In this document: in pieces, positions 1 through 12,184 of the stretch
How positions within the stretch are numbered: position 1 is the stretch's first letter
Layout of the letters: each line of letters begins with the position of its first letter
Origin: Candidatus Vampirococcus lugosii
GTDB lineage: Bacteria > Patescibacteriota > Gracilibacteria > Absconditabacterales > Absconditicoccaceae
NCBI RefSeq assembly: GCF_018420025.1
Contig: NZ_JAEDAM010000031.1
Location: 1-12,184 of the forward strand
Direction of reading: 5' to 3'
Length of the DNA stretch: 12,184 nucleotides
The notes under the pieces: generated by a model
Database searches by the model: none
What the model was told of the DNA's origin: nothing
Seen by the model: the letters and a program-made list of their open reading frames with translations, nothing else
Made by a program: the position numbers and the translations under genes

Positions 1-1068
1 ACTAGATGGACTACACCAAGTGATGAAAATGATGAACAAGATGAAAATAATGAAAATGATGAACAAGATGAAAATGATGAACAAGATGAAAATAATGAAA
101 GTGATGAACAAGATGAAAATAATGAAAGTGATGAACAAGATGAAAATAATGAAAATGATGAACAAGATAAAAATAATGAAAATGATGAACAAGAGGAAAA
201 TAATGGACAAAAAAAATTATCGGAATATATAAAAGAACTTGAAGAACAGATACAATCTGAACAAAAATTGATAAATAGAACAAATATTACAATTAATACT
301 CCTATATTTGAAACTAATAATGTACAAAATACAGTAAGTAAATTAAATAATTTAATTTTACAAAAAGTAGAGAATAAGAAAATATCTTGAAAAGATTTGG
401 AAAATTTTGTAGAAAATTATAATAACTTTTTAATGATTGTAAAGATTATTAGAGATATTAGTGATAATAATGAAATTAGAAAAGAATGAAAAACTTATGT
501 TTCAAATATTATATGAATATTAAATTCATATGAAGAAATAATTCCTTCTAGTGAATTACAAGATAAAGAGTTTGAAATGGCTTTATCTTTCTTAAAAAGA
601 TATTGATTGACAAAATATAATAGTGTAGATGAATTTAGACCAAATGATGAGCTTACAAGACAAGAATCAGCAAGTTTTTTTGCTTGATTTGCAAAAGAAG
701 TTTTATGAATACAAGAAACCAATAATAATTGTTCATTTATTGATATAGATAATGCAGATTATACTTTAGTACCAAAAATTAATTCTGTATGTGCTATGTG
801 AATTATGTGAATGAATAATAATGAGTTTAGACCATTTGAAATTATAAGTAGGGCAGAGTCGTTTACAGTATTGGTAAGATCTATATTATGAGATAATTTA
901 GATGAAACTGTAAATCCTCGGTGGGATAATTACTTCAAAGTAGCTCAAGAATTAAATCTTACTAATGAAGTTAGTACTTGGGATCAAGATAGACCTATAA
1001 CTAGATATGAAATGTCTTTAATTTTATATAGAGCTTGGTTAGGTTCCGAAGAAACATTATCTCAATAA
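1..1068 (+). CDS. Cell-surface protein, 5'-truncated by the window edge: acidic D/E/N/Q tandem-repeat region followed by three SLH-like repeats (translation table 25)
   Basis: Frame 1 is open from nt 1 to TAA at 1066-1068 once TGA is read as sense (9 in-frame TGA, the first at 388-390). There are three ~55-aa repeats containing FRPNDELTRQE (~634), FRPFEIISRAE (~826) and DRPITRYE (~988). With TGA=Gly these are preceded by RY-G-LTKY and AM-G-IM-G-M. This gives the G-[IL]-x-G ... F-x-P-x3-[IL]-[TS]-R-x-E pattern of S-layer-homology domains. TGG is used for Trp (PRWDN, STWDQ, RAWLG). Confidence 0.75.
22..210 (+). repeat. In-frame tandem repeat, 27-nt unit GATGAACAAGATGAAAATAATGAAART (DEQDENNE[N/S]), about 6-7 copies including one 18-nt short copy
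   Basis: Read directly: GATGAACAA recurs at 31, 58, 76, 103, 130, 157 and 184, with near-identical spacers. The last two copies are degenerate (GATAAA, GAGGAA). The repeat encodes a low-complexity acidic stretch of the surface protein. Confidence 0.9.
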
Positions 1069-1089
1069 TAATAATTATTTATATAAAAT

Positions 1090-1125
1090 AAAAAACTATT
1101 TCCTTCAATGGAGATAGTTTTTTTA
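1090..1125. terminator. Bidirectional intrinsic terminator between convergent genes
   Basis: 10-bp stem, 1094-1103 (aactatttcc) pairing with 1110-1119 (ggagatagtt), containing one G-U pair. The loop is 1104-1109. An A-run (1090-1095) lies on the left and a T-run (1118-1124) on the right, so either strand reads hairpin plus U-tract. It sits between the + gene stop (1068) and the minus gene stop (1140). Confidence 0.7.
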
Positions 1126-1139
1126 TCAAAAATATTTTA

Positions 1140-3881
1140 TTATCTTCATTCTATTACTACTGGTTTTTTACAATTTCAATGATCACTTTTGTCTCATGTA
1201 CAATTATATCTATTTTTTACAATAGGAGAAACTTTATTTATATTATAATTATCATTTTCATCTACATAAGAATTTCTAAGAAAATTTATATCATATCTTT
1301 GAGAAACTTTGTATGCAAATGCATTATTAAATAAGAAATTATCTTGATGTATTCTCCTACCTCATGGTAAAACAACTTCTTCATTTGTATTTATTATTCA
1401 TCATCAATATGTATTTCTAGAAATTATATTTCATTTTATATACAATTGTTGTTTCAATTTTTCATCATTTAAATTATATTGCATTATATCGCTTATTGTT
1501 CAATTCATATTATCTATAGAAAGTATACTTCAATCTGTTGTTATATTAGTTTGTATAGTATCTACTTCATTTCATATATATATATTTCAATTAATATTCC
1601 ATCCATTTGTTTTATTAAATTTTATTGTTCCATCATTACTAAATGAATAAATTTGCAAAAATCAATCATTCTTTATTTTTATATCTGATGATATTATCAT
1701 TTTACAATCTATAAATACTAATTTATTTTTTCATTCAACATCTGAAATTAAATCTATTATTATTTCATTTCAATTACAATTATATATTTCATTTCAAACA
1801 TTTCTTATTTCTTTAATTTCATTTCTATTTAATTCTTTTTTTCATTTTAAATTTCTAATAACTTCCTTTCTTTTTTTATTTATATAATTAGAAAACGAAA
1901 TTCAAGATCATCATATTTGATTTTCATTTCAAAATGCTAATATTTCTTCTATATTATATCATCTATTTAAAATTCATGTAATATCTATTCAAAAAAACTT
2001 TCATGCTATATTTAATCTATTTCAATCTATAGATGTATTTGGTATTAATTTAACTTTTTTTCAATCTATTTCGTATTGATAATGTCAATTATAGTATTCC
2101 ACTTTATTTAAATTTGTTCATGAAATTACTATTTTTCAATCTATTTTTGAATTTCAAAATCAAGAAAAAACTTCTCATTCTTCAAATACACAATCAAAAC
2201 ATCAAACTGTATCTCATACAATATCAAAATCTTCCAAATTAACATTATTTATAAGTCAAGTGTATACAAGACTTATTTCATTTTCTTCGTTGATCATAAT
2301 TCAATCTCAAACATTTATTCACTGAAATCATATACTTACTATATTTTGAAAATTTAATCATTTAATTTTTGTTCATATTGATATATTATCATAATTTATA
2401 TCAAGTTGAGCTGATCTTACTGGTTTATAACTTCAAATTCTAATTTTAATTTCTCATTCTTCGTCTGTGCTAGTATCAAATATGTCATAATTAAATCATG
2501 TTGTGTAATTTGTATTATCTGTTTCATCTAAATCAAAAAAATTTCAAGTATCTTCTATTTTTATATTTCATAAATCAAAATTAGGTACTGTATATCAATA
2601 TTGATTTAACATTTTAATATTAATATTACATTTATCTCATTTAGCTTTGGCATTACTACAGTTTGGATTTAAATAATATATTGATTCTTTTATTTGTTTA
2701 TCTGGATCTAATTTAATTTTACTAGTTTCAAGACTATTTGAATTTATATTTAGATATTGTCAAAAATCATATTTTCAATCTATTTTGTAATAAATATATA
2801 TTCAATTTTCATCTACTTTTTTTCAAAAAGGCATTAGTTTTATTTTAAATGGATATTTGCTATTAACATTATCTCAATTTATTATATTATAACTTATTCA
2901 TTGACTTGATTCATAATTTAAATTTCATATTCATACAAAATTACTTATTCAAGTAGTTTCAAATTCTGCATCAATATTTTCTCATATATATTTATTTCAA
3001 ACTCCACTTAATTTTAAATCAATATTTCAAGGAATTTCAAGATTTATATTTCAAGTAAGAACTTTATCAGTATCTTTATCGTATATTATATTTATTCATA
3101 AATTATTTTGACCAGCTATAATTCAAGATATTTTTCAATTTTTTCAATTTTTTCAATTTATTTCACTTAATTTATATCAATTTACTTTAGTTCCATCATT
3201 TTTATCAACTAAATTTTTTTCATTTAGTTTATGATCATTAATTAATATAGAGTTTATTAATTTTCAATTATTATCTCTAAGTATTATTTTATAATTTAAT
3301 TTATCTGAAAAATTTGCTTTTGCATTTCATATAAATATTAATTTACTTTTATTTTCATCAATTAAATCATAAACAATTTTTCTTGATTGAATATCTGTTT
3401 TTACTAATTCCCATTGCCACATTCATAATCAATTAGAATAAGATTGTCCAGTATGATAATATAATCATTCATCACCTGGATTATTATATCTATTATCATT
3501 TTGATCAGAAAAAACATAATAATTATCGCTAATATGTTCAAAATCTATCCGTCATCAAGCTGCTAATTTTGCCATTCAACGATATTTTCAATCTCAACAA
3601 GTATATGTTCATTTATCTCAATATTGAAAATATACTTCTCATATTTTATTTGTATATCAAGTTCATATTACTGGAAAACAATGATGTTCACCTCAATCTT
3701 TTCAATCTATAATTTTAGGATTATTTTTATCAACTTTAACTTCATAAACTATTCATTCTTTTTCTCATTCAAAATTAAGTTCATCAGTGTCTTTTATTGA
3801 AGCAAAGTTAAAAAAATTTGATTCTCAATATGTTTTGATTATAGATGTTATTATTATAAATAATATTATTATCTTTTTCAT
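1140..3881 (-). CDS. Large secreted or surface protein (913 aa), Gly/Asn/Ile-rich, N-terminal signal or anchor, function unknown (table 25)
   Basis: The minus-strand frame has no TAA or TAG from ATG (3881-3879) to TAA (1142-1140). I checked this line by line as the absence of in-frame tta/cta on the + strand. The N-terminus MKKIIILFIIITSIIKTYG is a hydrophobic signal or anchor. I hand-counted about 88 in-frame TGA and about 9 GGN. The sequence has beta-rich repetitive motifs (GNINLEIPGNIDLKLSG, TYGGGIINTN). I recognise no catalytic motif. Confidence 0.8.
3132..3158 (-). repeat. Perfect 9-nt x3 in-frame tandem repeat (ttttcaatt on the + strand) encoding (N-G-K)x3 with UGA-Gly
   Basis: Read directly: ttttcaatt occurs at 3132-3140, 3141-3149 and 3150-3158. 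On the coding strand this is AAT TGA AAA x3, inside the 913-aa ORF. Confidence 0.85.
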
Positions 3882-3919
3882 TTTTATATATTTTTATTTT
3901 TAAAATATAATTACCTAAT

Positions 3920-3948
3920 ATTATATATTAATAATACTTATTTGTCAA
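3920..3948 (-). promoter_or_regulatory. Consensus sigma70-type promoter for the 913-aa ORF
   Basis: On the minus strand, TTGACA (3948-3943) is followed by a 17-nt spacer and TATAAT (3925-3920). This lies 39 nt upstream of the ATG at 3881, inside the 115-nt intergenic gap. Caveat: TATAAT-like hexamers are frequent in DNA this AT-rich. Confidence 0.55.
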
Positions 3949-3996
3949 TATAATATATATAAATTATATTTTAATATTTAGAAAAATTTTATATTT

Positions 3997-4467
3997 TTAT
4001 TTTAGTATACTACTAATATATGCCAATCATAATGCATCTGCTGCATCATCATATTCTGGAATTTTTTCCAAAGAAAATATTTTCATTACAAAATTTTGTA
4101 CTGTAATTTTATTTGCTTTAGTATTTCAAGTTATATATTTTTTAAGTTCAATAGGTGATAATTCATAAATTTTAATATTTTTTTTAATTAACAAAACATA
4201 TAAAACAGCTCTTACTCAATATACAAATTCTGCATTTGCTTGATTTTTATTTGTAAAAAAAAGTTTTTCCATTCATGCTTTTTGTATATTATATTGATTT
4301 ATTATTTTTTCAAAAAAATTTTGTATTTCAAATATTTTTTGAAAATAATCTTCTCTATTTGGATTTTTTTTTTCTTGTAAAAGTATTCAAGCATCAATTA
4401 TATTTAGATTTTTATCTATTATTGCATATCATAATTTTCTAGCACCAGGATCTATTCATATAAACAT
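3997..4467 (-). CDS. ruvC: Crossover junction endodeoxyribonuclease RuvC (156 aa, table 25)
   Basis: The hand translation reads MFIGIDPGARKLGYAIIDKNLNIIDAGIL ... KYITGNTKANKITVQNFV ... EYDDAADALGLAYI. This matches the RuvC signature GIDPG...G, the K-x-VTG-x-G-x-A-x-K segment and the C-terminal D-x-x-DA-L-A motif. Seven in-frame TGA all fall at Gly-compatible positions, including the first G of GIDPG (4456-4458). Confidence 0.9.
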
Positions 4468-4492
4468 AATTTTTTTTTAAAATAAAAAGTTA

Positions 4493-5362
4493 TTACTTAA
4501 TATTATTTTTTTGTTCCAAACATTTATATATATGGTATATATATACAAAAAAATATACAGAAAAAATATAAAATAATATATTATTTAAAATAATACTAAT
4601 TATATTTGGTAAAATATCACTAAATGATGATAATAATCAACTAATAACTAATGCTAAAATACCAATAAGTAATAAATAAATAAATATTGTCCAAAAATTT
4701 CATTTAGTAAATTCTTTACTCATAGATATAGCTTTTTTTCAAAAAATATCTTCATTTAATACAAGCCAAGGAAGAGGAAGTAACTTTATATAAATTACCA
4801 TCATATATATATATTGAAATATAAATATTAATCAAAATATTGGTATTAATAATAATAAGTTTTTATTTGTTATGGCTCATAAAAAATCTGATGAAAAACC
4901 TGGTCAAAAGTATATATATAATATATAAAGAAATAATACTATTAATAGTATTAAACTTGGTAAAAACATAGTATACAAAAATAGAAAAAATGTTTTTATA
5001 ATTTTCCATATATTTCAATATATATAAGAAATTCATTTTAGTATAGTAAATTCTTTATTTTTCAAAATATTATTTATTCAATACAAAAGTAAAAAAAATA
5101 AAAATATTCAAATAATTAAAGATAATAAGTACAAAAAAGTAAGTATATATAAATAGATATTAAAGTTATCATTTCATGTATATACTTTACCAAAAATTAA
5201 TCGAAAAAATGCAAATATAAAAAGATAATTAATAATTGTATTAATAAACATAAAAAGTAAAACAATTAAAATTGATTTATTTTTTAAAACTTGTAAACTT
5301 GAATAATAAGATTTTACAAAAATTTGTTGTAAATCTATTTTATTGTATGTTTCTTCTGTCAT
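4493..5362 (-). CDS. Polytopic integral membrane protein (289 aa), family not assigned (table 25)
   Basis: The track ORF 5174..5362 is only its N-terminal 62 aa, ending at a TGA. Reading through, the same frame stays free of TAA and TAG down to TAA at 4495-4493. The protein has multiple long hydrophobic segments (ILIVLLFMFINTIINYLFIFAFF, IYLYILTFLYLLSLIIGIFLFFLLLYG, LYTMFLPSLILLIVLFLYILYIYF, FWTIFIYLLLIGILALVISGLL). Its stop lies 25 nt upstream of ruvC, so the two are probably co-transcribed. Confidence 0.75.
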
Positions 5363-5393
5363 TATATATATTTTATATAATATAAATTAATTA

Positions 5394-5421
5394 ATTATAA
5401 ATTTTTTTTAGTAAAAAACAA
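5394..5421 (-). promoter_or_regulatory. Candidate sigma70-type promoter for the membrane-protein/ruvC pair
   Basis: On the minus strand, TTGTTT (5421-5416) is followed by a 16-nt spacer and TATAAT (5399-5394). This lies 32 nt upstream of the ATG at 5362. The support is weak because of the AT-rich background. Confidence 0.35.
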
Positions 5422-5430
5422 TAACTTTTT

Positions 5431-6630
5431 TTAATTAATAAATTCATCAATTGCATCAAAAAATTTATCTATATCATCAAAATTATTATAAACATATAAA
5501 CTAACTCTGCAACTACTCAAATATCACATAAATTTTAAATATGGATGAGCACAATGTCAACCACATCTTATACAAATATTTTTCATAGCCATAAATTCAC
5601 CAAATTTTATTGCTGAGAAATTTCATTTTAATATAAAACTAAAAACTCATAATCTATTTTTGGTATTATTTTTTCAGATTAATTCAATTTTATCGGATCT
5701 TTTTAAAAATCAATCAAGCATATATTTAGTTAATTCTTGTTCTTTTTCCCAAATTTTTTTGAAACCTCATATTGATTCGATATATTCAAAAGCTTTTAAT
5801 AAACTTATAGCACCAGAAATATTTGGAGTTCAAGCTTCAAAAGCTTGTATTCAATTAAGAAAAGATACGGATTGTAAAGAAACATCTTTAATATTTCATC
5901 AACCACCAAAACAAGGATTCATTTTTTTTAATAAATTTTTATTTGCTACCAAAACTCAAATTCAAGTATTTGCCATCAACTTATGACCAGTAAAGATAAG
6001 AAAATCAGCATTTATTTTTTGAAAATCTACTGGAAAATTTGGAACTGCTTGTGATCAATCTACTACAAATATAGTGTCATCTCTAAGTAAATTTCAAATA
6101 TTTTCCAAATCAAATATAGTTCAAGTTAAATTTGAAACATAAGTAAAAGAAACTATTTTTACATTTTTATCATATTTTTGTTCAAAATCTTGTAAATCTA
6201 TATCTCCATTTTTATCTATATTTACATAATCAATTTCAATATCAATTTTATCTTTTAAAATAAGCCAAGGCACTATATTTGAATGATGTTCAGCAATACT
6301 AAGTAATATTTTATCTCAATTTTTTAAAATATTTGAAAAATATAAACTCATAGATAAAATATTGAAAGCATATGTAGAATTGTAAGTATAAATTATTTGT
6401 GATGATTTTACATTAAGATTTTTGGCAATTATAGATTTGGATTTATCATACAAATCTTCAGAAAAATCTGATAAATTATACATTCATCTATGAATATTTG
6501 CATAATATTTTGATAAATGTTCACTAATTCAATCTATTACAAATTTAGGTTTTTGGCTACTTGAGCAAGTATCAAGATATACTAAAGTTTTGTCGTCAAA
6601 AACTGGAAAATCTGATTTTATATCAAACAT
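5431..6630 (-). CDS. sufS: Cysteine desulfurase, class-V aminotransferase, SufS/CsdA-type (399 aa, table 25)
   Basis: The hand translation shows these motifs: MFDIKSDFPVF...VYLDTCSSSQKP; ANIHRG; SIAEHHSNIVPW; VDGSQAVPNFPVDF; FTGHKL (PLP-lysine motif); NTGIGVL; FGGGGNI; FEAGTPNISGAISL; and IRCGGHCAHPYL (active-site Cys loop, group II type). The frame is open from ATG 6630 to TAA 5433-5431. Confidence 0.9.
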
Positions 6631-6649
6631 TAAAATAATGTAAAAAAAT

Positions 6650-7357
6650 AAATTATTAAGATTTATTATGTATATCAATAATTTGTTGACATACAATTTC
6701 TATCGGGTCAAAACTAGGAATTTTTTCAAAAAAACTATCTTTTCAGAAAATATAAGAAATTTCTGTACAAGCATAAATTACAGAATCAAATCAATATTTT
6801 TTTTGTAGTTTTTCAGAATTTAAAAAACTTTTATAAAAAAAATTTATAGCTTCAAAACTTTTTCAAGCTTTTACTGAATAAATAGCTTTCATAATAATTT
6901 CTTGATTTTGTTTTGTAAGTTTTATTAAAGATATATCAAATTTTTGACAATATTTATCATATACTCAAGCTTGAAAAGTTCAATTTGTTCATAATAAAAG
7001 AGGCTTTTTTAATCATTTAGATTTAAGATATTTAACAGTTTCATTAACTATATTTATTAAATTTGCTTTTTTTACAATAAACTCATCAAAAAAATGATGA
7101 GCAGTATTACAAGCTATCACAATATGTGTACATCATTGTTCTTCCAAACTTTTTATTCATTCATTAATTTTTGTAAGTGGAGAAATTCAATTATTTAAAA
7201 TAGCACAAGTTCTATCTGGTATATCAGGTTTAGTATATAAAATAGTTTCAATATTTTCTAAATCATTTTTTGCAAAAGTTTTTTCTATTAATCTTTGATT
7301 AAAATACAATCAAGCAATAGCTCACATTCATCATAATATTCACAATTTAACAAACAT
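6650..7357 (-). CDS. Asp/Glu/hydantoin racemase family protein, aspartate-racemase-like (235 aa, table 25)
   Basis: The N-terminus is MFVKLGILGGMGAIAGLYF, the GGMG motif, in which four of the five Gly codons are TGA. Both catalytic-Cys motifs are present: IVIACNTAHHF and IYACTEIS. The ATG at 7357 lies 3 nt after the stop of the upstream dipeptidase gene. Confidence 0.85.
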
Positions 7358-7360
7358 ATT

Positions 7361-8347
7361 TTATAATATTTTTTTTATAAATTCAAAAGCATTAGTATAT
7401 AAAATTTTTTCTATTTCAGAAACAGTAAATCAATATTCTATCATTTTATCGGCAAGAATTTGAAAATCACTTGATTGCTGAAATTCATTTATTAAATCAT
7501 TTGAAGTAGTTCAGTCAAAATCAGATCAAATAGCAATATAATTTATTCAAACTAAATCATAAACATATTTAATAGATTTCAAAAAATCATCAAGTTTATT
7601 AGATCATAAATATTTTGGATGTGGCATAAGTCATATTAATCATCAAGATTTTGCAATAGCTTTTATTTGTTCATCATCAATATTTCTATTATTTTGTATC
7701 AAACAATTAACTTGAGTATGTGAAATAAATAAAGGTAATTTGGTATAATTTGCTATTTCCCAAAAAGATTTTTTTCATATATGTGCTAAATCAAGTATTA
7801 TATTATTATTTTCAATATAATCAATAACTTTTTTTCAAATTTTTGTAAGGTTTCAATTTCATCAAGCTCATCAAGCTAAACAATTATCAAAATTCCAAGT
7901 AAGAGCAATAGATCTAACTCATCTTTGATAATAATAATTTAAAATTTTCAAATCTGATTCTTGATCTATAAAATAAAATCATTCCATATGTTTTATTAAT
8001 CATATATTTTCATCAAGATTAACTTTATCTAAATCATTTTTATTTTTGATAGCAAAAATTTTTCAATTACTATTTTTCAAAATATAATCATAATAATCAA
8101 GTTGCTGTTTTATTAAATATCTTCTAATATTTATATCTTGATTAATTTCATTTGGCATTAAACAAGATGCACCAAATACTAATTTTACATTTCATTTTTG
8201 CAATCTAGGTAAATCAACTTGATTATTTACATTTAATCAATAATAATTTCGTCATTCATTTATTCAATTTTCAACAAAAAAATTTTTGTGTGATAATATT
8301 AAAGAATTGTCAGCCCAATCGTTATGTAAATCTATAATTTTGTACAT
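7361..8347 (-). CDS. Membrane-dipeptidase family protein, peptidase M19 (328 aa, table 25)
   Basis: The hand translation shows these motifs: MYKIIDLHNDWAD (metal-binding H-x-D); KHMEGFYF; YYQRGVRSIALTWNFDN; IILDLAHIGKKSF; PLFISHTQVNCL..NNRNIDDEQIKAIAKSGGLIGL; and INYIAIGSDFDGT. Together these are the M19 (renal-dipeptidase-like) signature set. The frame is free of TAA and TAG from 8347 to TAA at 7363-7361. Confidence 0.85.
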
Positions 8348-8370
8348 TACAATATATTTTTAATATAAAT

Positions 8371-9747
8371 TTAAAAATTTTTTTTCAAAAAAGATAATTG
8401 TTTTTTAAGATCAGACATATTAATACTTCACATTTTTTCAAAAATTTCATTTCTTTCAGATTCAGAATATGAATATAAATCAAATTGAGAAAAGTAATTT
8501 GAAGTATTTCATATATGATCAAATAAATAAGAAGAACAAAAAGTAGATTTTATTAATTTTATAAGTTCTTTATTTTGTGATTTATATTTTTCTATTAGAG
8601 AAGAATATTTTGCTATAACATATTTTATATCAGTAATTCATTGACTTTTAAGTTCTTTTATTTGTATTCATTTTTCAATTGAAATTTGTGATAATTTTTC
8701 ATTATTTACAAATAAATCATTTATTGCAGTTCTAATATTTTTATCTAAACTCAATAATTTAATATTAGCAGTAGGAACAATATTAAAATTTAATGTAGCT
8801 GGAATTTTTAAATCACTTTTTTCCAATAATATTGAATATAATTCATTATAAATTTTTCAAAAATTTTCTATATAATTAACCATATCAGGTCAAGAACAAT
8901 GATAAACTGTATCTTTATTATATTTTATAGAATCTATAATTCAAAAAAGTATAGTATTTATTATATTACTTAGTATAGGTCACTTAATTTCATCTCTTAT
9001 TTCATTAAAATCGGAATCAAGTGGATTTTTTATTACAATATCACTCATAGCATTAGTAGATTTTTCAAATCTTTCAATTAATTCAGATTTTTTTATTTTC
9101 AAACTTGATCAATAAGAATTTGTATTTGAATCAAAATACATATAATCATCATCTATATATTTTACAGTAAGTATTTCTCAATTTGGTAATATATATCTAT
9201 CAAAAATAAAGTTTAATTTATCATAATCTCAAGATTTTTCTATATTTTCAAATAAAGTAGAAATAACTTTTAATACTATTTCTTTATTCTCATCAAGCCA
9301 TTGAGAAAAAGTTATTATTTCTGTTTCAGGAAAAGTTTTTTTAGTAACTTCATAATGAAAAGCTCAAATTCAATCAGAATTAGAAACTATATTAAATATA
9401 TCTGAATCTAGATGATGTGGTAGATTTAATGATTTAGGTAGTCTAGAAAGAATACTAATTTTATCTTGTTTCTTTTCAAATATTTCAATTTCTTCTCAAT
9501 TATAAATTATACTTCAAGGTTTATAATTTTTATCTTTAGACAAAATTGTTCTATCATATAAAACACTTGGTAAACCAAAATGCATTATTGATAAATTTGA
9601 TGGATATTGATTTCCAATATGTGCACTTCTAATTACAGGAAATCATTGATCAAATAATTCTCTCAATTGATATAAATTAATATTTTCACAAATTTGTATA
9701 TTAAAATTATTTCATATTCATTCTTTATTTTCTATATTTGAATTCAT
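8371..9747 (-). CDS. Hypothetical protein (458 aa), no recognisable family (table 25)
   Basis: The frame has no TAA or TAG from ATG (9747-9745) to TAA (8373-8371), and about 17 in-frame TGA. The sequence begins MNSNIENKEGIGNNFNIQICENINLYQLRELFDQGFPVIRSAHIGNQYPSNL. There is no TM segment or signal peptide. The C-terminal third looks helical or coiled (EKLSQISIEKGIQIKELKSQ...KYKSQNKELIKLIK). Its stop lies 23 nt upstream of the dipeptidase gene. Confidence 0.7.
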
Positions 9748-9768
9748 AATATTTAGGTTTAATGAATT

Positions 9769-10137
9769 AAATTATCTTGATAATAAGCTCAGTTTTGTAT
9801 TAGCAAAATTTGTCTGACTTTGCTTATAGCAAAGATTTAGCACTACCTTTACTTAATTGTAAAGTAAGCTTGCATCAGCTAGGGTTTACCACTGGTTTAC
9901 AAATCTTGTAAACTCAGGAGAAGTAGCACTCAATTAATTTTGAATAACATCTTCACATTGCACCTTTCATTTAGTATTTAAACTAAACTAGTTTCTGTCT
10001 CTGTGGCACTTTCCTTTGTCTTGACTATCAATCAAGTATTCCAATTGTCTTTAACAATTAGCCTTTTTGCGATGCTGAGACTTTCCTCTCATAAATATAT
10101 TTTTATATATTTACAAGTATTGCTTGTCAAGATTATT
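9769..10137 (-). ncRNA. rnpB: RNase P RNA, bacterial type A (ends approximate, +/-10 nt)
   Basis: The minus strand carries the universal conserved regions:
- GAGAGGAAAGUCUCAGC (10090-10074), which matches GAGGAAAGUCCGGGC.
- GGAAAGUGCCACAGAGACAGAAAC.
- AUGAAAGGUGCAAUGUGAAG.
- GGUAAACCCUAGCUGAUGCAAG.
- ACAAAACUGAGCUUAU near 9783-9798.
P4 pairing is CUCAG with CUGAG. The P1 candidate is AAUAAUCUUGA (10137-10127) pairing with UCAAGAUAAUU (9780-9770). This segment is locally GC-richer than the flanks and contains no ORF. Confidence 0.9.
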
Positions 10138-10213
10138 TATATATAATTAAAATAATATTATTTTCAATAGAATTTATATTTTTTTTAAAATTATTTTGAA
10201 TTTTGTAGTATTA

Positions 10214-11038
10214 TTAAAATAATGTATCAAAAGGATTCTCTATTTTATCTAAACTTGGATTTGTAATATGAGTATATATTTGAGTAGTTTTTATATTACT
10301 GTGTCAAAGTAGTTCTTGAATATATTTTATATCTACTCAATTTTCAAGTAAATGTGTAGCATATGAATGTCTAAGTGTATGAGGAGTAACATTTTTCATA
10401 ATTCATGCTTTTTTAGATGCATTTTTTACAATATTTTGTATACTTTTGTCGCTATATATATAATTTCATTCTCAGGGGAACAATAATTCATTTGGTTTAT
10501 ATTTTTTATAATATATTTTTAATAATTTTAATATTTCTTTTGAAAGAGGAATTGTTCTATCTTTTGCTCATTTTGATTTTTTAATATATATTTTCATTCT
10601 TTTTGAATCTATATTTTCTATTTTTAGATGTATAAGTTCTGATAATCTAAGTCATCAAGAATATATAAGAGATACTATAGTTTTATGTTTTAAATTATCT
10701 ATACTTTCAATAAGTTTTTTAACTTCTTCTTTTGATAATACATTTGGAATTTTATTTTCTTTTCCTCTAGGTTTAATATAACTAAAATCATATTTTTTTC
10801 AGAGAAATTCATTATAATATAGTGTAATAGCTCAAATAATTTGTTTTTGAAATGAAATTGAAATACCTTTTTTAACTTGGATATTGACATAATTATAAAT
10901 TTCTTTTTTTGTTAATTTTGTATTGTCTAAATAATGATTAAATAATTTCATTAAAATGCTTGTATAAGTTTTTATAGTATTTTTGGAATATTTTTTTATA
11001 TGTAACCATTCACTAAAATTATTAATTTCTTCTCACAT
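10214..11038 (-). CDS. Tyrosine recombinase / integrase, XerC/XerD-like (274 aa, table 25)
   Basis: The hand translation shows an N-terminal SAM-like domain (FSEWLHIKKYSKNTIKTYTSIL...QKQIIGAITLYYNEF). The catalytic motifs are LIYSGGLRLSELIHLKIENID (Arg I), KGAKDRTIPL, and [38 protein letters not shown] (H-x-x-R, LLGH and the nucleophile Tyr). The second codon is TGA. The track ORF 10699..10890 is an off-frame artefact inside this gene. Confidence 0.9.
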
Positions 11039-11081
11039 AAATATTCGTATAACAATCTAAAATAGATTAAAAAAACGATCT

Positions 11082-11107
11082 TATTGATTTTTAGAGAGAA
11101 ATCAATA
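11082..11107. repeat. Inverted repeat (9-bp arms, 8-nt loop) in the divergent recombinase/lipoprotein intergenic region; a second small palindrome lies at 11054-11068
   Basis: Read directly: tattgattt (11082-11090) pairs with aaatcaata (11099-11107). In addition, aatcta-aaa-tagatt forms a palindrome at 11054-11068. Confidence 0.6.
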
Positions 11108-11150
11108 TATTTTTGTTATGTGAAATAATTTATTTTTTAATTTTACTACT

Positions 11151-11396
11151 ATGAAAAAAACTATGGTAATTTTATTTCTTGCTCTATTAATAATTACAGG
11201 CTGTTCATCTCAAAAAAATATTACTAATAAAAATCAAGATTTATCTCCTGCTGAGCAATATTGTTTATCAAAAGGTGGAAAAATTGAGGTTCATAAACCT
11301 GATGAAAAGGAAAATAAAGTATGTTTTATAAATGATGGTCTTGATGGTATCAGGTGTAATGTTGATTTATTTTTTGAGAAGAAGTGTGGTCATTAA
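11151..11396 (+). CDS. Small lipoprotein with DUF333-like (COG3042 'putative hemolysin') domain, 81 aa, no TGA
   Basis: This is a standard-code ORF from the track. The signal peptide plus lipobox is MKKTMVILFLALLIITG|C. The mature part, SPAEQYCLSKGGKIEV...KVCFINDG...RCNVDLFFEKKCG, matches the DUF333 pattern N-P-A-x-x-Y-C-x-x-x-G-G ... C-x-x-x-D-G ... C-x-x-W-x-x-F-x-x-x-C. All 6 Gly are GGN. Confidence 0.8.
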   Translation: MKKTMVILFLALLIITGCSSQKNITNKNQDLSPAEQYCLSKGGKIEVHKPDEKENKVCFINDGLDGIRCNVDLFFEKKCGH

Positions 11397-11444
11397 AAAA
11401 TAAAAAAATGCTTTTGTATAAGGAGTAAAAATATCTTTTTAAAA

Positions 11445-11635
11445 CTCAAGGGGGCGTTGCACTTATTTTTTCTTCCGTTTCTCTACAGAAAAAACACCCT
11501 CGCCTAACACAGTATATCTAGCTCTCTCGTGCCCTCGCTCGACCCATATTTGCTTCCATAAATTAAATTGATAAAATGGAATGGAAGCAAACATCAGATA
11601 TACTGAAACGTTGTGTGAAATAAGTTTTGAGCCCT
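11445..11635 (+). other. GC-enriched non-coding element built of nested perfect inverted repeats (structured RNA, or a MITE- or recombination-site-like DNA element); identity unknown
   Basis: Four nested helices were read directly:
- 11445-11449 with 11627-11631 (5 bp).
- 11461-11468 with 11618-11625 (8 bp).
- 11510-11519 with 11596-11605 (10 bp).
- 11549-11559 with 11581-11591 (11 bp, with a 21-nt AT loop).
The element also has a CCCTCGC direct repeat at 11497-11503 and 11532-11538. No ORF exists on either strand under table 11 or table 25. The strand assignment is arbitrary. Confidence 0.4.
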
Positions 11636-11654
11636 AAATCGGAAAGTTTATAAT
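11627..11654 (+). promoter_or_regulatory. Candidate sigma70-type promoter for the HIT gene
   Basis: TTGAGC (11627-11632) is followed by a 16-nt spacer and TATAAT (11649-11654). This lies 25 nt upstream of the ATG at 11680. The -35 element overlaps the outer arm of the nested-repeat element. Confidence 0.35.
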
Positions 11655-11679
11655 AATTTAAATCTCTTAATTTTTTATT

Positions 11680-12177
11680 ATGGCAAACTACAAGTCATCA
11701 ACAGACGAAGGAAAATGTATCTTTTGTGAAATTATAAAAGGCAATATCCAAACTCCTGGAATTTTTTGGGAAGATAACGAGTTTATGGCATTTTTATCAA
11801 CATGGCCAAGTGTTGAAGGTTTTACTGTTGTAGTTCCAAAAGAACATTATGGCAGCGATTGTTTAGCACTGCCAGATGATGTTTTGCAAAGATTTATTTT
11901 AGCAACGAAAAAAGTTTCCAATGTTCTTTTGAAAAATTTTGATGATGTTGGTAGGGTTGGTCTAATTATGGAAGGAACTGGTGTTGACCATGCCCACATA
12001 AAACTCGTTCCAATGCACGGAACAGGTCATATGAAAAAAGGAGTTTGGAAACAATATCTTAGCGGAAGGTCAGATTATTTTGAAACATATGAAGGATATA
12101 TAATTTCAACAGATGGTCCAAAAGCAAATCCAGAAAAAATAAGAGATTTAGCAAAAAAATTAAGAGATGCTCAATAA
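11680..12177 (+). CDS. HIT-family (histidine triad) protein, 165 aa, no TGA
   Basis: This is a standard-code ORF from the track. It has the N-terminal C-I-F-C-E-I motif and a triad region GVDHAHIKLVP, which is an H-x-H-x-K variant of H-x-H-x-H-x-x. All 15 Gly are GGN and its 3 Trp are TGG. GC is visibly higher than in the left 11 kb: individual 60-nt lines run 30-45%. Confidence 0.9.
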   Translation: MANYKSSTDEGKCIFCEIIKGNIQTPGIFWEDNEFMAFLSTWPSVEGFTVVVPKEHYGSDCLALPDDVLQRFILATKKVSNVLLKNFDDVGRVGLIMEGTGVDHAHIKLVPMHGTGHMKKGVWKQYLSGRSDYFETYEGYIISTDGPKANPEKIRDLAKKLRDAQ

Positions 12178-12184
12178 CGGGCTC

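Follow-up and report, generated by a model that had tools for sequence, protein, structure and literature searches.

A probable insertion point for standard-code gene cassettes beside a XerA-like recombinase gene in the code-25 bacterium Candidatus Vampirococcus lugosii

Why should the glycine codons of a contig change from TGA to GGN beside a recombinase gene? The stretch considered here (the window) comprises 12,184 nucleotides (nt) of Candidatus Vampirococcus lugosii (contig NZ_JAEDAM010000031.1, positions 1 to 12,184), a member of the Absconditabacteria in which UGA encodes glycine (code 25; PMC8080830). It carries a tyrosine recombinase gene transcribed away from the break and, on the other side of the break, two genes for a DUF333 lipoprotein and a HIT-family hydrolase. 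An initial annotation, made from the letters alone, proposed these three identities, and Pfam matches upheld them all (Phage_integrase and SAM_4 for the recombinase; HIT at 26.5 bits against a cut-off of 21.5; DUF333 barely at threshold, at 25.1 bits against 25). It also offered three explanations for the break, namely DNA acquired from a standard-code donor, a chimeric assembly junction and a native pocket under codon selection. We conclude that the break is probably the attI-like insertion point of an integron-like cassette platform served by a XerA-like recombinase. The first of the three explanations is thereby retained in a refined form, as two gene cassettes placed at a conserved insertion point (Table 1).

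The nine open reading frames (ORFs) to the left of position 11056 contain 228 glycine codons, 201 of them TGA and 27 GGN, so that the TGA share is 88%, within the 85-90% first estimated. Each of these ORFs has at least seven in-frame TGA codons, their GC content is 0.15-0.24 and their GC at third codon positions (GC3) is 0.04-0.10. In-frame TGA throughout native genes is expected of a code-25 host, the assignment to glycine being taken from the genome paper (PMC8080830). On the right, both ORFs (11151-11396 and 11680-12177) lack TGA and write all 21 glycines as GGN, six in the lipoprotein ORF (GC 0.27) and 15 in the HIT ORF (GC 0.34), as the annotation had noted. Under the left-hand usage the chance of this would be (27/228)^21, or about 4e-20. 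The higher GC seen by eye on the right is also borne out, with a sliding-window rise from about 0.18 to 0.32 across the break, and in the two genes GC3 reaches 2-4 times the value of their neighbours and matches that of the cassette in other hosts. Translation with table 25 yields long genes on the left, whereas ORFs of at least 60 amino acids (aa) under table 11 are the two right-hand genes and a few short fragments only. The switch had been placed exactly at the 5' end of the recombinase gene (11038/11039). It lies instead between G11115 and T11116, within the triplet G↓TT (the arrow marks the presumed crossover), about 77 nt upstream of the recombinase start codon and beyond a conserved non-coding region. 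Positions past the window are given on Logan contig L001 (run SRR13241709), which equals window 5212-12184 at 99.97% (2 mismatches in 6,973 nt) and extends 175 nt past the window end.

To place the break in context, we compared it with the surroundings of four close relatives of the recombinase (L042-L045), two of which (L042 and L043) come from near-identical strains. L044 and L045 are plainly code 25, with 3-13 TGA in each core gene. TGA is sparser in L042 and L043, where the recombinase has 11 TGA and 8 GGN and the flanking core genes have 1-10 TGA. The recombinases of all four contain 11-13 TGA, and the gene or genes divergent from them contain none (GGN counts of 40, 39, 19, 16 and 16) and have higher GC. 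Between the recombinase start codon, which TTCGTATAAC adjoins, and the point of divergence, some 80-95 nt are conserved in the five genomes (ATATTCGTATAAC ... CGATTTTATTTACTT ... AAATCAATA.A.TTTcGTTA); past GTTA, divergence among all five is total (alignment A3), and the first cassette holds five different genes in the five genomes. The two near-identical strains, with 1.19-Mb genomes from sister samples, are 99.99% identical from position 9872, 94 nt upstream of the recombinase start, whereas the sequence before 9872 is unrelated and carries wholly different arrays; the divergence sets in immediately after ..AATAATGTTAG, just past GTTAG. In L042, one cassette start, G↓TTAGGCGACAT... (G↓TTAGGCGACATATTTTTG...), comes after the attI-like site and again after a hairpin site, and we therefore place the crossover at G↓TT. 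The leader of this L042 cassette is similar by eye to a leader in a Peregrinibacteria locus. Folded as single-stranded DNA, the attI-like region itself is weakly structured (z about -2). Its conserved block in A3 includes the hexamers of a promoter-like sequence that may face the cassettes in the manner of an integron Pc, the number of promoter-like sites across the region being not above chance. A degenerate attI-like pattern returned no match in Joint Genome Institute (JGI) metagenome contigs; L042 and L043 both fit this pattern and are thus evidently outside that collection.

The variable regions of these two strains carry altogether different gene sets. L042 (1-9871) contains a tandem duplication of a 5.7-kb two-cassette unit with methyltransferase/S-subunit and NspV-like genes, and L043 (1-9871) contains helix-turn-helix, Dcm and MutH-like genes, other methylases and a heavy-metal ATPase. 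We considered a phase-variable Type I restriction-modification shufflon in L042 and discarded it, given its direct repeats and the unrelated genes of the sister strain. Several cassette ORFs (L042 4313-6082; L043 9316-9642 and 249-1514) stop at TGA when called under the standard code, and reading them in code 25 extends them by 2-7 codons or fuses ORFs. Judged from the reading frames, this TGA read-through is the trace that genes composed under the standard code leave.

The second cassette of Vampirococcus links the locus to standard-code genomes. It corresponds to a module of about 665 nt, made of the HIT ORF with about 70 nt upstream and about 85-95 nt downstream, which recurs at 84-95% nucleotide identity in ten contexts. 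All of these are standard-code, with unrelated neighbouring genes that have no in-frame TGA, and the hosts include Magasanikbacteria, Peregrinibacteria, Buchananbacteria, Saccharibacteria and a spirochaete. Copies in standard-code Candidate Phyla Radiation (CPR) genomes and in metagenome contigs are 88-92% identical to the Vampirococcus cassette, which is the donor evidence for acquired DNA, and even the non-coding flanks of the gene are about 90% identical in standard-code genomes. In most copies the left boundary of the module is at or within a few bases of G↓TT (6399/6400 of L001, that is 11610/11611 of the window); homology starts at L001 6395-6400 in several hosts and at 6378-6430 over all copies. 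In other standard-code CPR genomes, by contrast, HIT occupies a fixed neighbourhood and the similarity is limited to the ORF. At the protein level, relatives at 80-93% identity come from the same four CPR groups, Woesearchaeota, Nanoarchaeota and a spirochaete. The named close relatives are thus CPR and DPANN lineages with one spirochaete and one metagenome-assembled genome labelled Gammaproteobacteria, and the Halochromatium host is not among them, so that the suggestion of a host or prey organism as donor finds no support here. The module has a GC of 0.33-0.36 and a GC3 of about 0.18-0.23 both in Vampirococcus (locus GC 0.22) and in Magasanikbacteria (GC 0.44), and because these values are constant across such different loci, the composition belongs to the cassette and not to its host. 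Third-position differences between copies are symmetric, with no AT drift in the Vampirococcus copy.

The HIT protein has as its nearest structure Bacillus subtilis Hit (1Y23, E = 6e-13). Its HxHxHxx triad reads H-A-H-I-K where 1Y23 has H-Y-H-M-H, the third histidine being replaced by lysine. The cassette seems to carry its own promoter, as the TTGAGC-16-TATAAT sequence in its leader is kept in three of the four aligned module copies (alignment A1), L008 differing at the -35-like hexamer. The protein had no match among IMG/VR viral contigs, and thus we see no sign of a phage vehicle. Past the window, the cassette's own attC-like site begins about 66 nt beyond the end (L001 7039-7148), where it scores 17.4 bits with its 3' end missing, as the Logan contig breaks inside this hairpin. 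A 17-nt inverted repeat, AAATAAGTTTTGAGCCC / GGGCTCAAAACTTACTT (94% complementary), also flanks the HIT ORF, with arms at window 11618-11634 and from 12179 onward (mostly past the window; L001 6407-6423 and 6968-6984). It is largely kept in three of the four aligned copies, the upstream arm of L008 being divergent, and an mRNA or single-stranded DNA stem or the remnant of an older site are candidate roles.

The first cassette is much rarer. Its lipoprotein has only two relatives in a collection of 5.8 billion proteins, at 78% and 55% identity. The closer one lies on a code-25 contig (L046) next to a gene with 8 TGA and is itself TGA-free, and the two cassettes are 81% identical in nucleotide sequence from the leader through the hairpin to G↓TT (L001 5918-6401). 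The lipoprotein cassette may thus circulate among Absconditabacteria. The initial annotation had held that orthologues of the two genes at the same locus in related code-25 genomes would point to native genes; the lipoprotein cassette does have its relative in L046, which is free of TGA there too. The other relative has no hairpin and belongs to a standard-code genome, with ruvA and pgi on either side. A repeat (D3) marks the cassette start (GTTATGTGAAATAATTT vs GTTGTGTGAAATAAGTT). PADLOC returned no defence-system match for either the lipoprotein or the HIT protein. After the lipoprotein hairpin, L046 carries at 566-730 a short element bounded by GTTAGCACGAAA...TTTCGTGCTAAC, and then GTCCGCAAC...GCGGACGTTAGCAGACAT, which look like one or two empty or degenerate sites, with a TGA-rich gene next.

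What joins these modules is a hairpin at the end of each. The GC-rich spacer between the two right-hand genes does not correspond to a known RNA, since Rfam (E <= 1) and ARAGORN, run over the whole window, found RNase P RNA only and nothing in 11400-11680. A naive scan for AAC, stem and GTT was unspecific (73 matches against 44-72 in shuffled sequences) and loose regular expressions were too noisy; half-site hidden Markov models and a covariance model were used in their place. The half-site models matched significantly on the cassette strand only, their matches being confined to loci in which HIT is in its mobile form, and revealed arrays. In all, co-oriented arrays occur in L011, L012, L014, L039, L042 and L043. 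In the 5' part, the hairpins run from (C/T)AAC over 1-2 nt to a box of about 10 nt centred on ATAT and often followed by GGTTCA; in the 3' part, a variable stretch that includes CACCCAAATTT precedes AAAC(T/A)TC and the complementary box, after which 3-6 nt with a final AC lead to G↓TT(A/G). Their length is typically about 90-145 nt (80-145 nt overall, with one of about 200 nt), and the site between the two Vampirococcus cassettes (site 1) measures about 110 nt. Among the sites of L042 and L043 are hairpins with clear homology to site 1 and to the one that follows HIT in Magasanikbacteria. By eye, some sites in L011 and L042 fit RYYYAAC / GTTRRRY perfectly (GCCTAAC; GTTAGGC), and other sites fit AAC/GTT only.

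Several lines of evidence indicate that the fold of these sites is maintained. True partners among the L'' and L' boxes are complementary at 8.3 of 9 positions and swapped ones at 6.3 of 9 (permutation p <= 5e-5). In a MAFFT alignment of 13 hairpin sites (A2), on which the covariation tests and the covariance model (CM R1) are based, 88.7% of cells are paired, and sliding the partner lowers this share to 25-40%. Pairing in the L box stands at 90.9%, nine of its 11 pairs have changed on both sides, the AAC/GTT pairs are retained in 11-13 of the 13 sites, and the covariation score is 0.48 against 0.06-0.10. RNAalifold, unaided, recovered the same helix, and the single-stranded DNA fold of site 1 has a z of -3.9 for both strands. 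CM R1 gave 31 matches at E <= 1 in 309 kb, none of them off the cassette strand; site 1 enters this count twice, from the window and from L001, and 14 of the 31 are seed sites or duplicates. About 12 sites at E < 0.01 are new, one of them in a Woesearchaeota locus. The covariation speaks for selection that maintains the fold and not a particular sequence, and the strict strand polarity together with the fixed boundary speaks for site-specific recombination. Weaker matches (27.5 and 26 bits) were found in L028 at 2986-3128 (Woesearchaeota) and in L005 and L002 at 7676-7765, the latter two being standard-code CPR genomes with HIT in a fixed neighbourhood. The family of hairpins may extend beyond the loci examined here.

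The recombinase itself is native in its codon usage, as 11 of its 13 glycine codons are TGA and two are GGN. It scores 231.9 bits against the NCBIfam model of archaeal XerA (NF040815), above the curated cut-off of 220, and 207 bits against the integron-integrase model TIGR02249, under its cut-off of 265. The TIGR02249 alignment falls into two stretches and skips profile positions of about 180-237. Among solved structures, XerA (4A8E and 5HXY) is the best match, in one stretch each, whereas the Vibrio integrase 2A3V (VchIntIA, IntI4) aligns in two stretches, with 21 residues facing 64 of the integrase. Both comparisons thus skip the integrase insertion, and the IntI-specific additional domain around patch III is therefore absent. 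In sequence, the protein appears to belong with XerA and the Xer-related recombinases of candidate phyla, its relatives standing at 81, 77, 74, 65, 64 and 60% identity, followed by a very large family near 50%. A standard-code contig (L009) encodes a 40%-identical recombinase (found with tblastn), divergent from a HIT cassette and with the TTCGTATAA motif nearby. A recombinase search of metagenome contigs returned 34 loci, at no more than 49% identity, with hairpin sites at three distinct loci (four records, of which L057 and L058 are apparently one sequence). In L049 (4188-6161) and in L057 and L058 (5572-10164), recombinases of 348-374 aa, 45-47% identical to that of Vampirococcus, are followed on the same strand by ORFs and a hairpin that is rich in GC and belongs to this family; the layout is thus the inverse of that in Vampirococcus.

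Taken together, these results lead us to propose how the platform would work. The recombinase would bind the folded hairpin, presumably as a single strand, in which the AAC/GTT R box and the covarying L box, with an asymmetric bulge between them, would mimic the two-arm core site of Xer and IntI enzymes. By analogy with integrons, the adjacent recombinase would act as a dimer and cut at G↓TT, and strand exchange there with the attI-like site or with another hairpin would insert and excise circular cassettes. That the neighbouring recombinase is the catalyst is suggested by six co-occurrences and the conserved site; the direction and date of the transfers are inferred too. On the evidence of their relatives, the cassettes would come from a pool circulating in standard-code CPR, some other bacteria and, probably, DPANN archaea. 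Membership of such a pool explains why they are TGA-free, write glycine as GGN and keep a GC of their own, and they can be translated in a code-25 host because GGN still means glycine and both genes end in TAA. The accessible supplementary files of the V. lugosii paper, which counts 126 transfers, do not mention the locus tags of the right-flank genes.

A number of observations weigh against this proposal. The domain that the recombinase lacks has been called essential for integron recombination (PMC9668308; PMC8138268), and the protein clears the curated cut-off of a model for archaeal XerA. Only one of 40 further HIT-derived loci (L002-L041) has such a recombinase within about 4 kb, and the distant relatives of the recombinase have their hairpin sites downstream on the same strand, so that the divergent layout is not replicated there. 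Neither the motifs conserved inside the hairpins (GGTTCA, CACCCAAATTT) nor the spacing of their boxes is that of a textbook attC, and some cassettes in the relatives are multi-gene units of about 3 kb. In Vampirococcus the contig stops two cassettes into the array, whose far boundary lies outside it, and the read sets behind the RefSeq and Logan assemblies may overlap.

One alternative is an artefact, either a chimera of assembly or amplification (by multiple displacement amplification, MDA, or the annealing- and looping-based procedure MALBAC) or contamination joined onto a Vampirococcus contig. The genome was indeed assembled from whole-genome-amplified DNA of about 10 cells (PMC8080830), the contig stops shortly past the break, and both assemblies end inside one repeat-like site. 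The Logan contig nevertheless reproduces the junction almost letter for letter, and four further code-25 assemblies, which differ in sample and pipeline, switch in identical fashion at this conserved sequence. Cassette arrays, moreover, make assemblies stop in a repeated hairpin site (PMC9024848), and this accounts for the contig end. A chimeric junction, the second of the explanations first offered, is accordingly given almost no probability. We hold the third, that native genes avoid TGA under local selection such as for high expression or translational accuracy, to be equally remote. Beyond the TGA-free pattern as such, it can appeal to the lipoprotein relative that is TGA-free in another code-25 contig, but it would have to explain why near-identical strains differ wholly at this position, why standard-code homologues share the non-coding flanks of HIT, and why the two genes have the GC3 that the cassette shows elsewhere. 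An ordinary genomic island or prophage remnant, inserted by its own integrase through attP and attB, would place a tyrosine recombinase at the edge of foreign-looking DNA, as is seen here, and restriction-modification and toxin-type genes do occur in the variable regions of the relatives. It is nonetheless very unlikely, as the recombinase is native by its codons, belongs to a lineage (60-81% identity) found on code-25 contigs in four of four cases retrieved, and stays in place while the adjoining content changes between strains. The foreign DNA is also modular, with a hairpin site after each unit, and the HIT protein is without viral matches.

The main rival concerns the role of the enzyme rather than its chemistry, which it shares with our proposal. 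In this alternative, the recombinase is a chromosome-dimer resolvase of the Xer-related subgroup of candidate phyla ('Cand'), the conserved region is its dif site, as in xerS/difSL and xerH/difH, and modules that exploit Xer, comparable to integrative mobile elements exploiting Xer (IMEX), accumulate there, so that cassette capture would be a by-product. The family and structure matches to XerA, in a single stretch and above the curated cut-off, favour such a role, as does the restriction of the protein to a core-binding and a catalytic domain, and the candidate-phyla enzymes are presumed to resolve chromosome dimers (PMC8138268). Against it, no two-arm palindrome of 28-30 bp is evident in the conserved region, and the sites are hairpins of about 100 nt with covarying stems, the solution of integrons rather than of dif. 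The module ends GGAGCACATAA and TTGTGTGAAAT do resemble what we take to be the two arms of Escherichia coli dif, at 9 of 11 positions each. The skew along the 12-kb contig follows gene orientation. We judge this alternative unlikely, albeit the most credible of the four, and it may be that cassettes parasitising a Xer/dif system are what this common chemistry reflects in evolutionary terms.

In several respects, the proposed cassette platform resembles known integrons. As in sedentary chromosomal integrons and CALINs (attC clusters that have no integron integrase), the recombinase gene diverges from a co-oriented array (also in L042-L045 and L009), beside a conserved insertion site with crossover at G↓TT. 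The hairpins recall attC in that they are imperfect, carry AAC...GTT, bulge asymmetrically at the centre and have a second stem that covaries and a loop that varies. The cassettes recall integron cassettes in their small ORFs, Fic-family N-terminal domain (Fic_N) and restriction-modification genes, the arrays vary between strains and break assemblies, and the cassettes are common to several phyla and probably to more than one domain. Unlike integrons, the system has a XerA-like recombinase, conserved motifs inside its sites, spacings of 1-2 nt and 3-6 nt between boxes, some multi-gene cassettes, a HIT cassette that apparently has its own promoter, and a host that uses code 25. Archaeal integrons also exchange cassettes across domains, and their integrases do have the IntI domain (Ghaly et al., 2022; PMC9668308). 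Because this defining domain is absent here, we do not file the locus as a canonical integron.

The other systems with which the locus can be compared are the single-recombinase Xer systems (XerS/difSL, XerH/difH and archaeal XerA), IMEX and the pdif modules of Acinetobacter. Shared with them are a short Xer-type recombinase that has neither an arm-binding nor an IntI domain, a site beside its gene, and modules bounded by sequences that resemble Xer half-sites. In contrast to them, the sites are long folded hairpins rather than 28-bp duplexes, no dif-like palindrome was identified, and the modules form direct tandem arrays common to several phyla. One report describes standard-code phages that interact with code-25 CPR bacteria (PMC10746230). 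As with those phages, standard-code genetic material would here enter hosts in which UGA means glycine; unlike them (they were matched through CRISPR spacers), the cassettes are chromosomal and fixed at a recombination hotspot. Within the searchable literature, integrons and CPR occur together only in resistome or unrelated surveys, and that part of it on Absconditabacteria and related CPR phyla yielded no mention of the term 'integron'.

More generally, we see an even chance that Absconditabacteria, and possibly many CPR, harbour an unrecognised kind of integron, with a short XerA-like integrase devoid of the IntI domain, a distinct family of folded attC-like sites marked by conserved motifs and a cassette pool shared with standard-code CPR, spirochaetes and DPANN, in which the code difference acts as a one-way filter. 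Such a filter would show in the DNA as cassettes without TGA and as former TGA stops that are read through. The reassignment of a stop codon is often described as an obstacle to the exchange of genes; in five code-25 assemblies, two of them from near-identical strains, there is a dedicated spot for the uptake of standard-code genes, which are recognisable by their zero TGA count. If the XerA-like enzyme does the work, integron-type cassette capture would not depend on the IntI-specific domain, it would exist in CPR, whose mobile elements are poorly known, and it would make CPR, DPANN and other bacteria partners in a single pool of cassettes. ORFs that lack TGA, are richer in GC and have such a hairpin behind them could serve as a marker for recent transfers in recoded genomes, and hairpin cassette arrays explain why such contigs break in assemblies.

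Table 1. Features of the recombinase locus, in coordinates of the window.
Feature	Position	Strand	Remarks
Tyrosine recombinase, 274 aa, XerA-like	10214..11038	-	Phage_integrase and SAM_4 matches; diverges from the cassettes
attI-like conserved non-coding region	11039..11115	.	conserved in Vampirococcus and L042-L045; ends at crossover G11115↓T11116
Promoter-like TTGATT-16-TATATT facing the cassettes (Pc-like, inferred)	11084..11111	+	9/12 matches; hexamers in conserved block of A3
Cassette 1: leader TTATGTGAAATAA..., DUF333 ORF, attC-like site, to the G of the next G↓TT	11116..11610	+	
DUF333 lipoprotein ORF, 81 aa	11151..11396	+	lipobox LLIITGC; 0 TGA, 6 GGN; TAA stop
attC-like hairpin site 1	11500..11623	+	overlaps first bases of cassette 2; CM R1 86.9 bits (seed member)
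Site 1, R'' box AAC	11506..11508		
Site 1, L'' box CAGTATATCT	11510..11519		
Site 1, L' box AGATATACTG	11596..11605		
Site 1, R' box GTT	11610..11612		
Cassette 2 (HIT module): leader, ORF, start of 3' region	11611..12184	+	cut by contig end
Promoter-like TTGAGC-16-TATAAT in HIT leader	11627..11654	+	10/12 matches; alignment A1
HIT-family hydrolase ORF, 165 aa	11680..12177	+	0 TGA, 15 GGN; TAA stop

Elsewhere in the window, the ORF at 1-1068 (+), open at the contig start, has a long acidic repeat (DEQDENN...) at its beginning, and the 917-aa ORF at 1140-3893 (-) contains 88 TGA glycine codons. Immediately downstream of the recombinase gene lies an AT-rich candidate for a class A bacterial RNase P RNA (9768-10135, minus strand), which matches the full model at 70 bits against an Rfam gathering score of 100.

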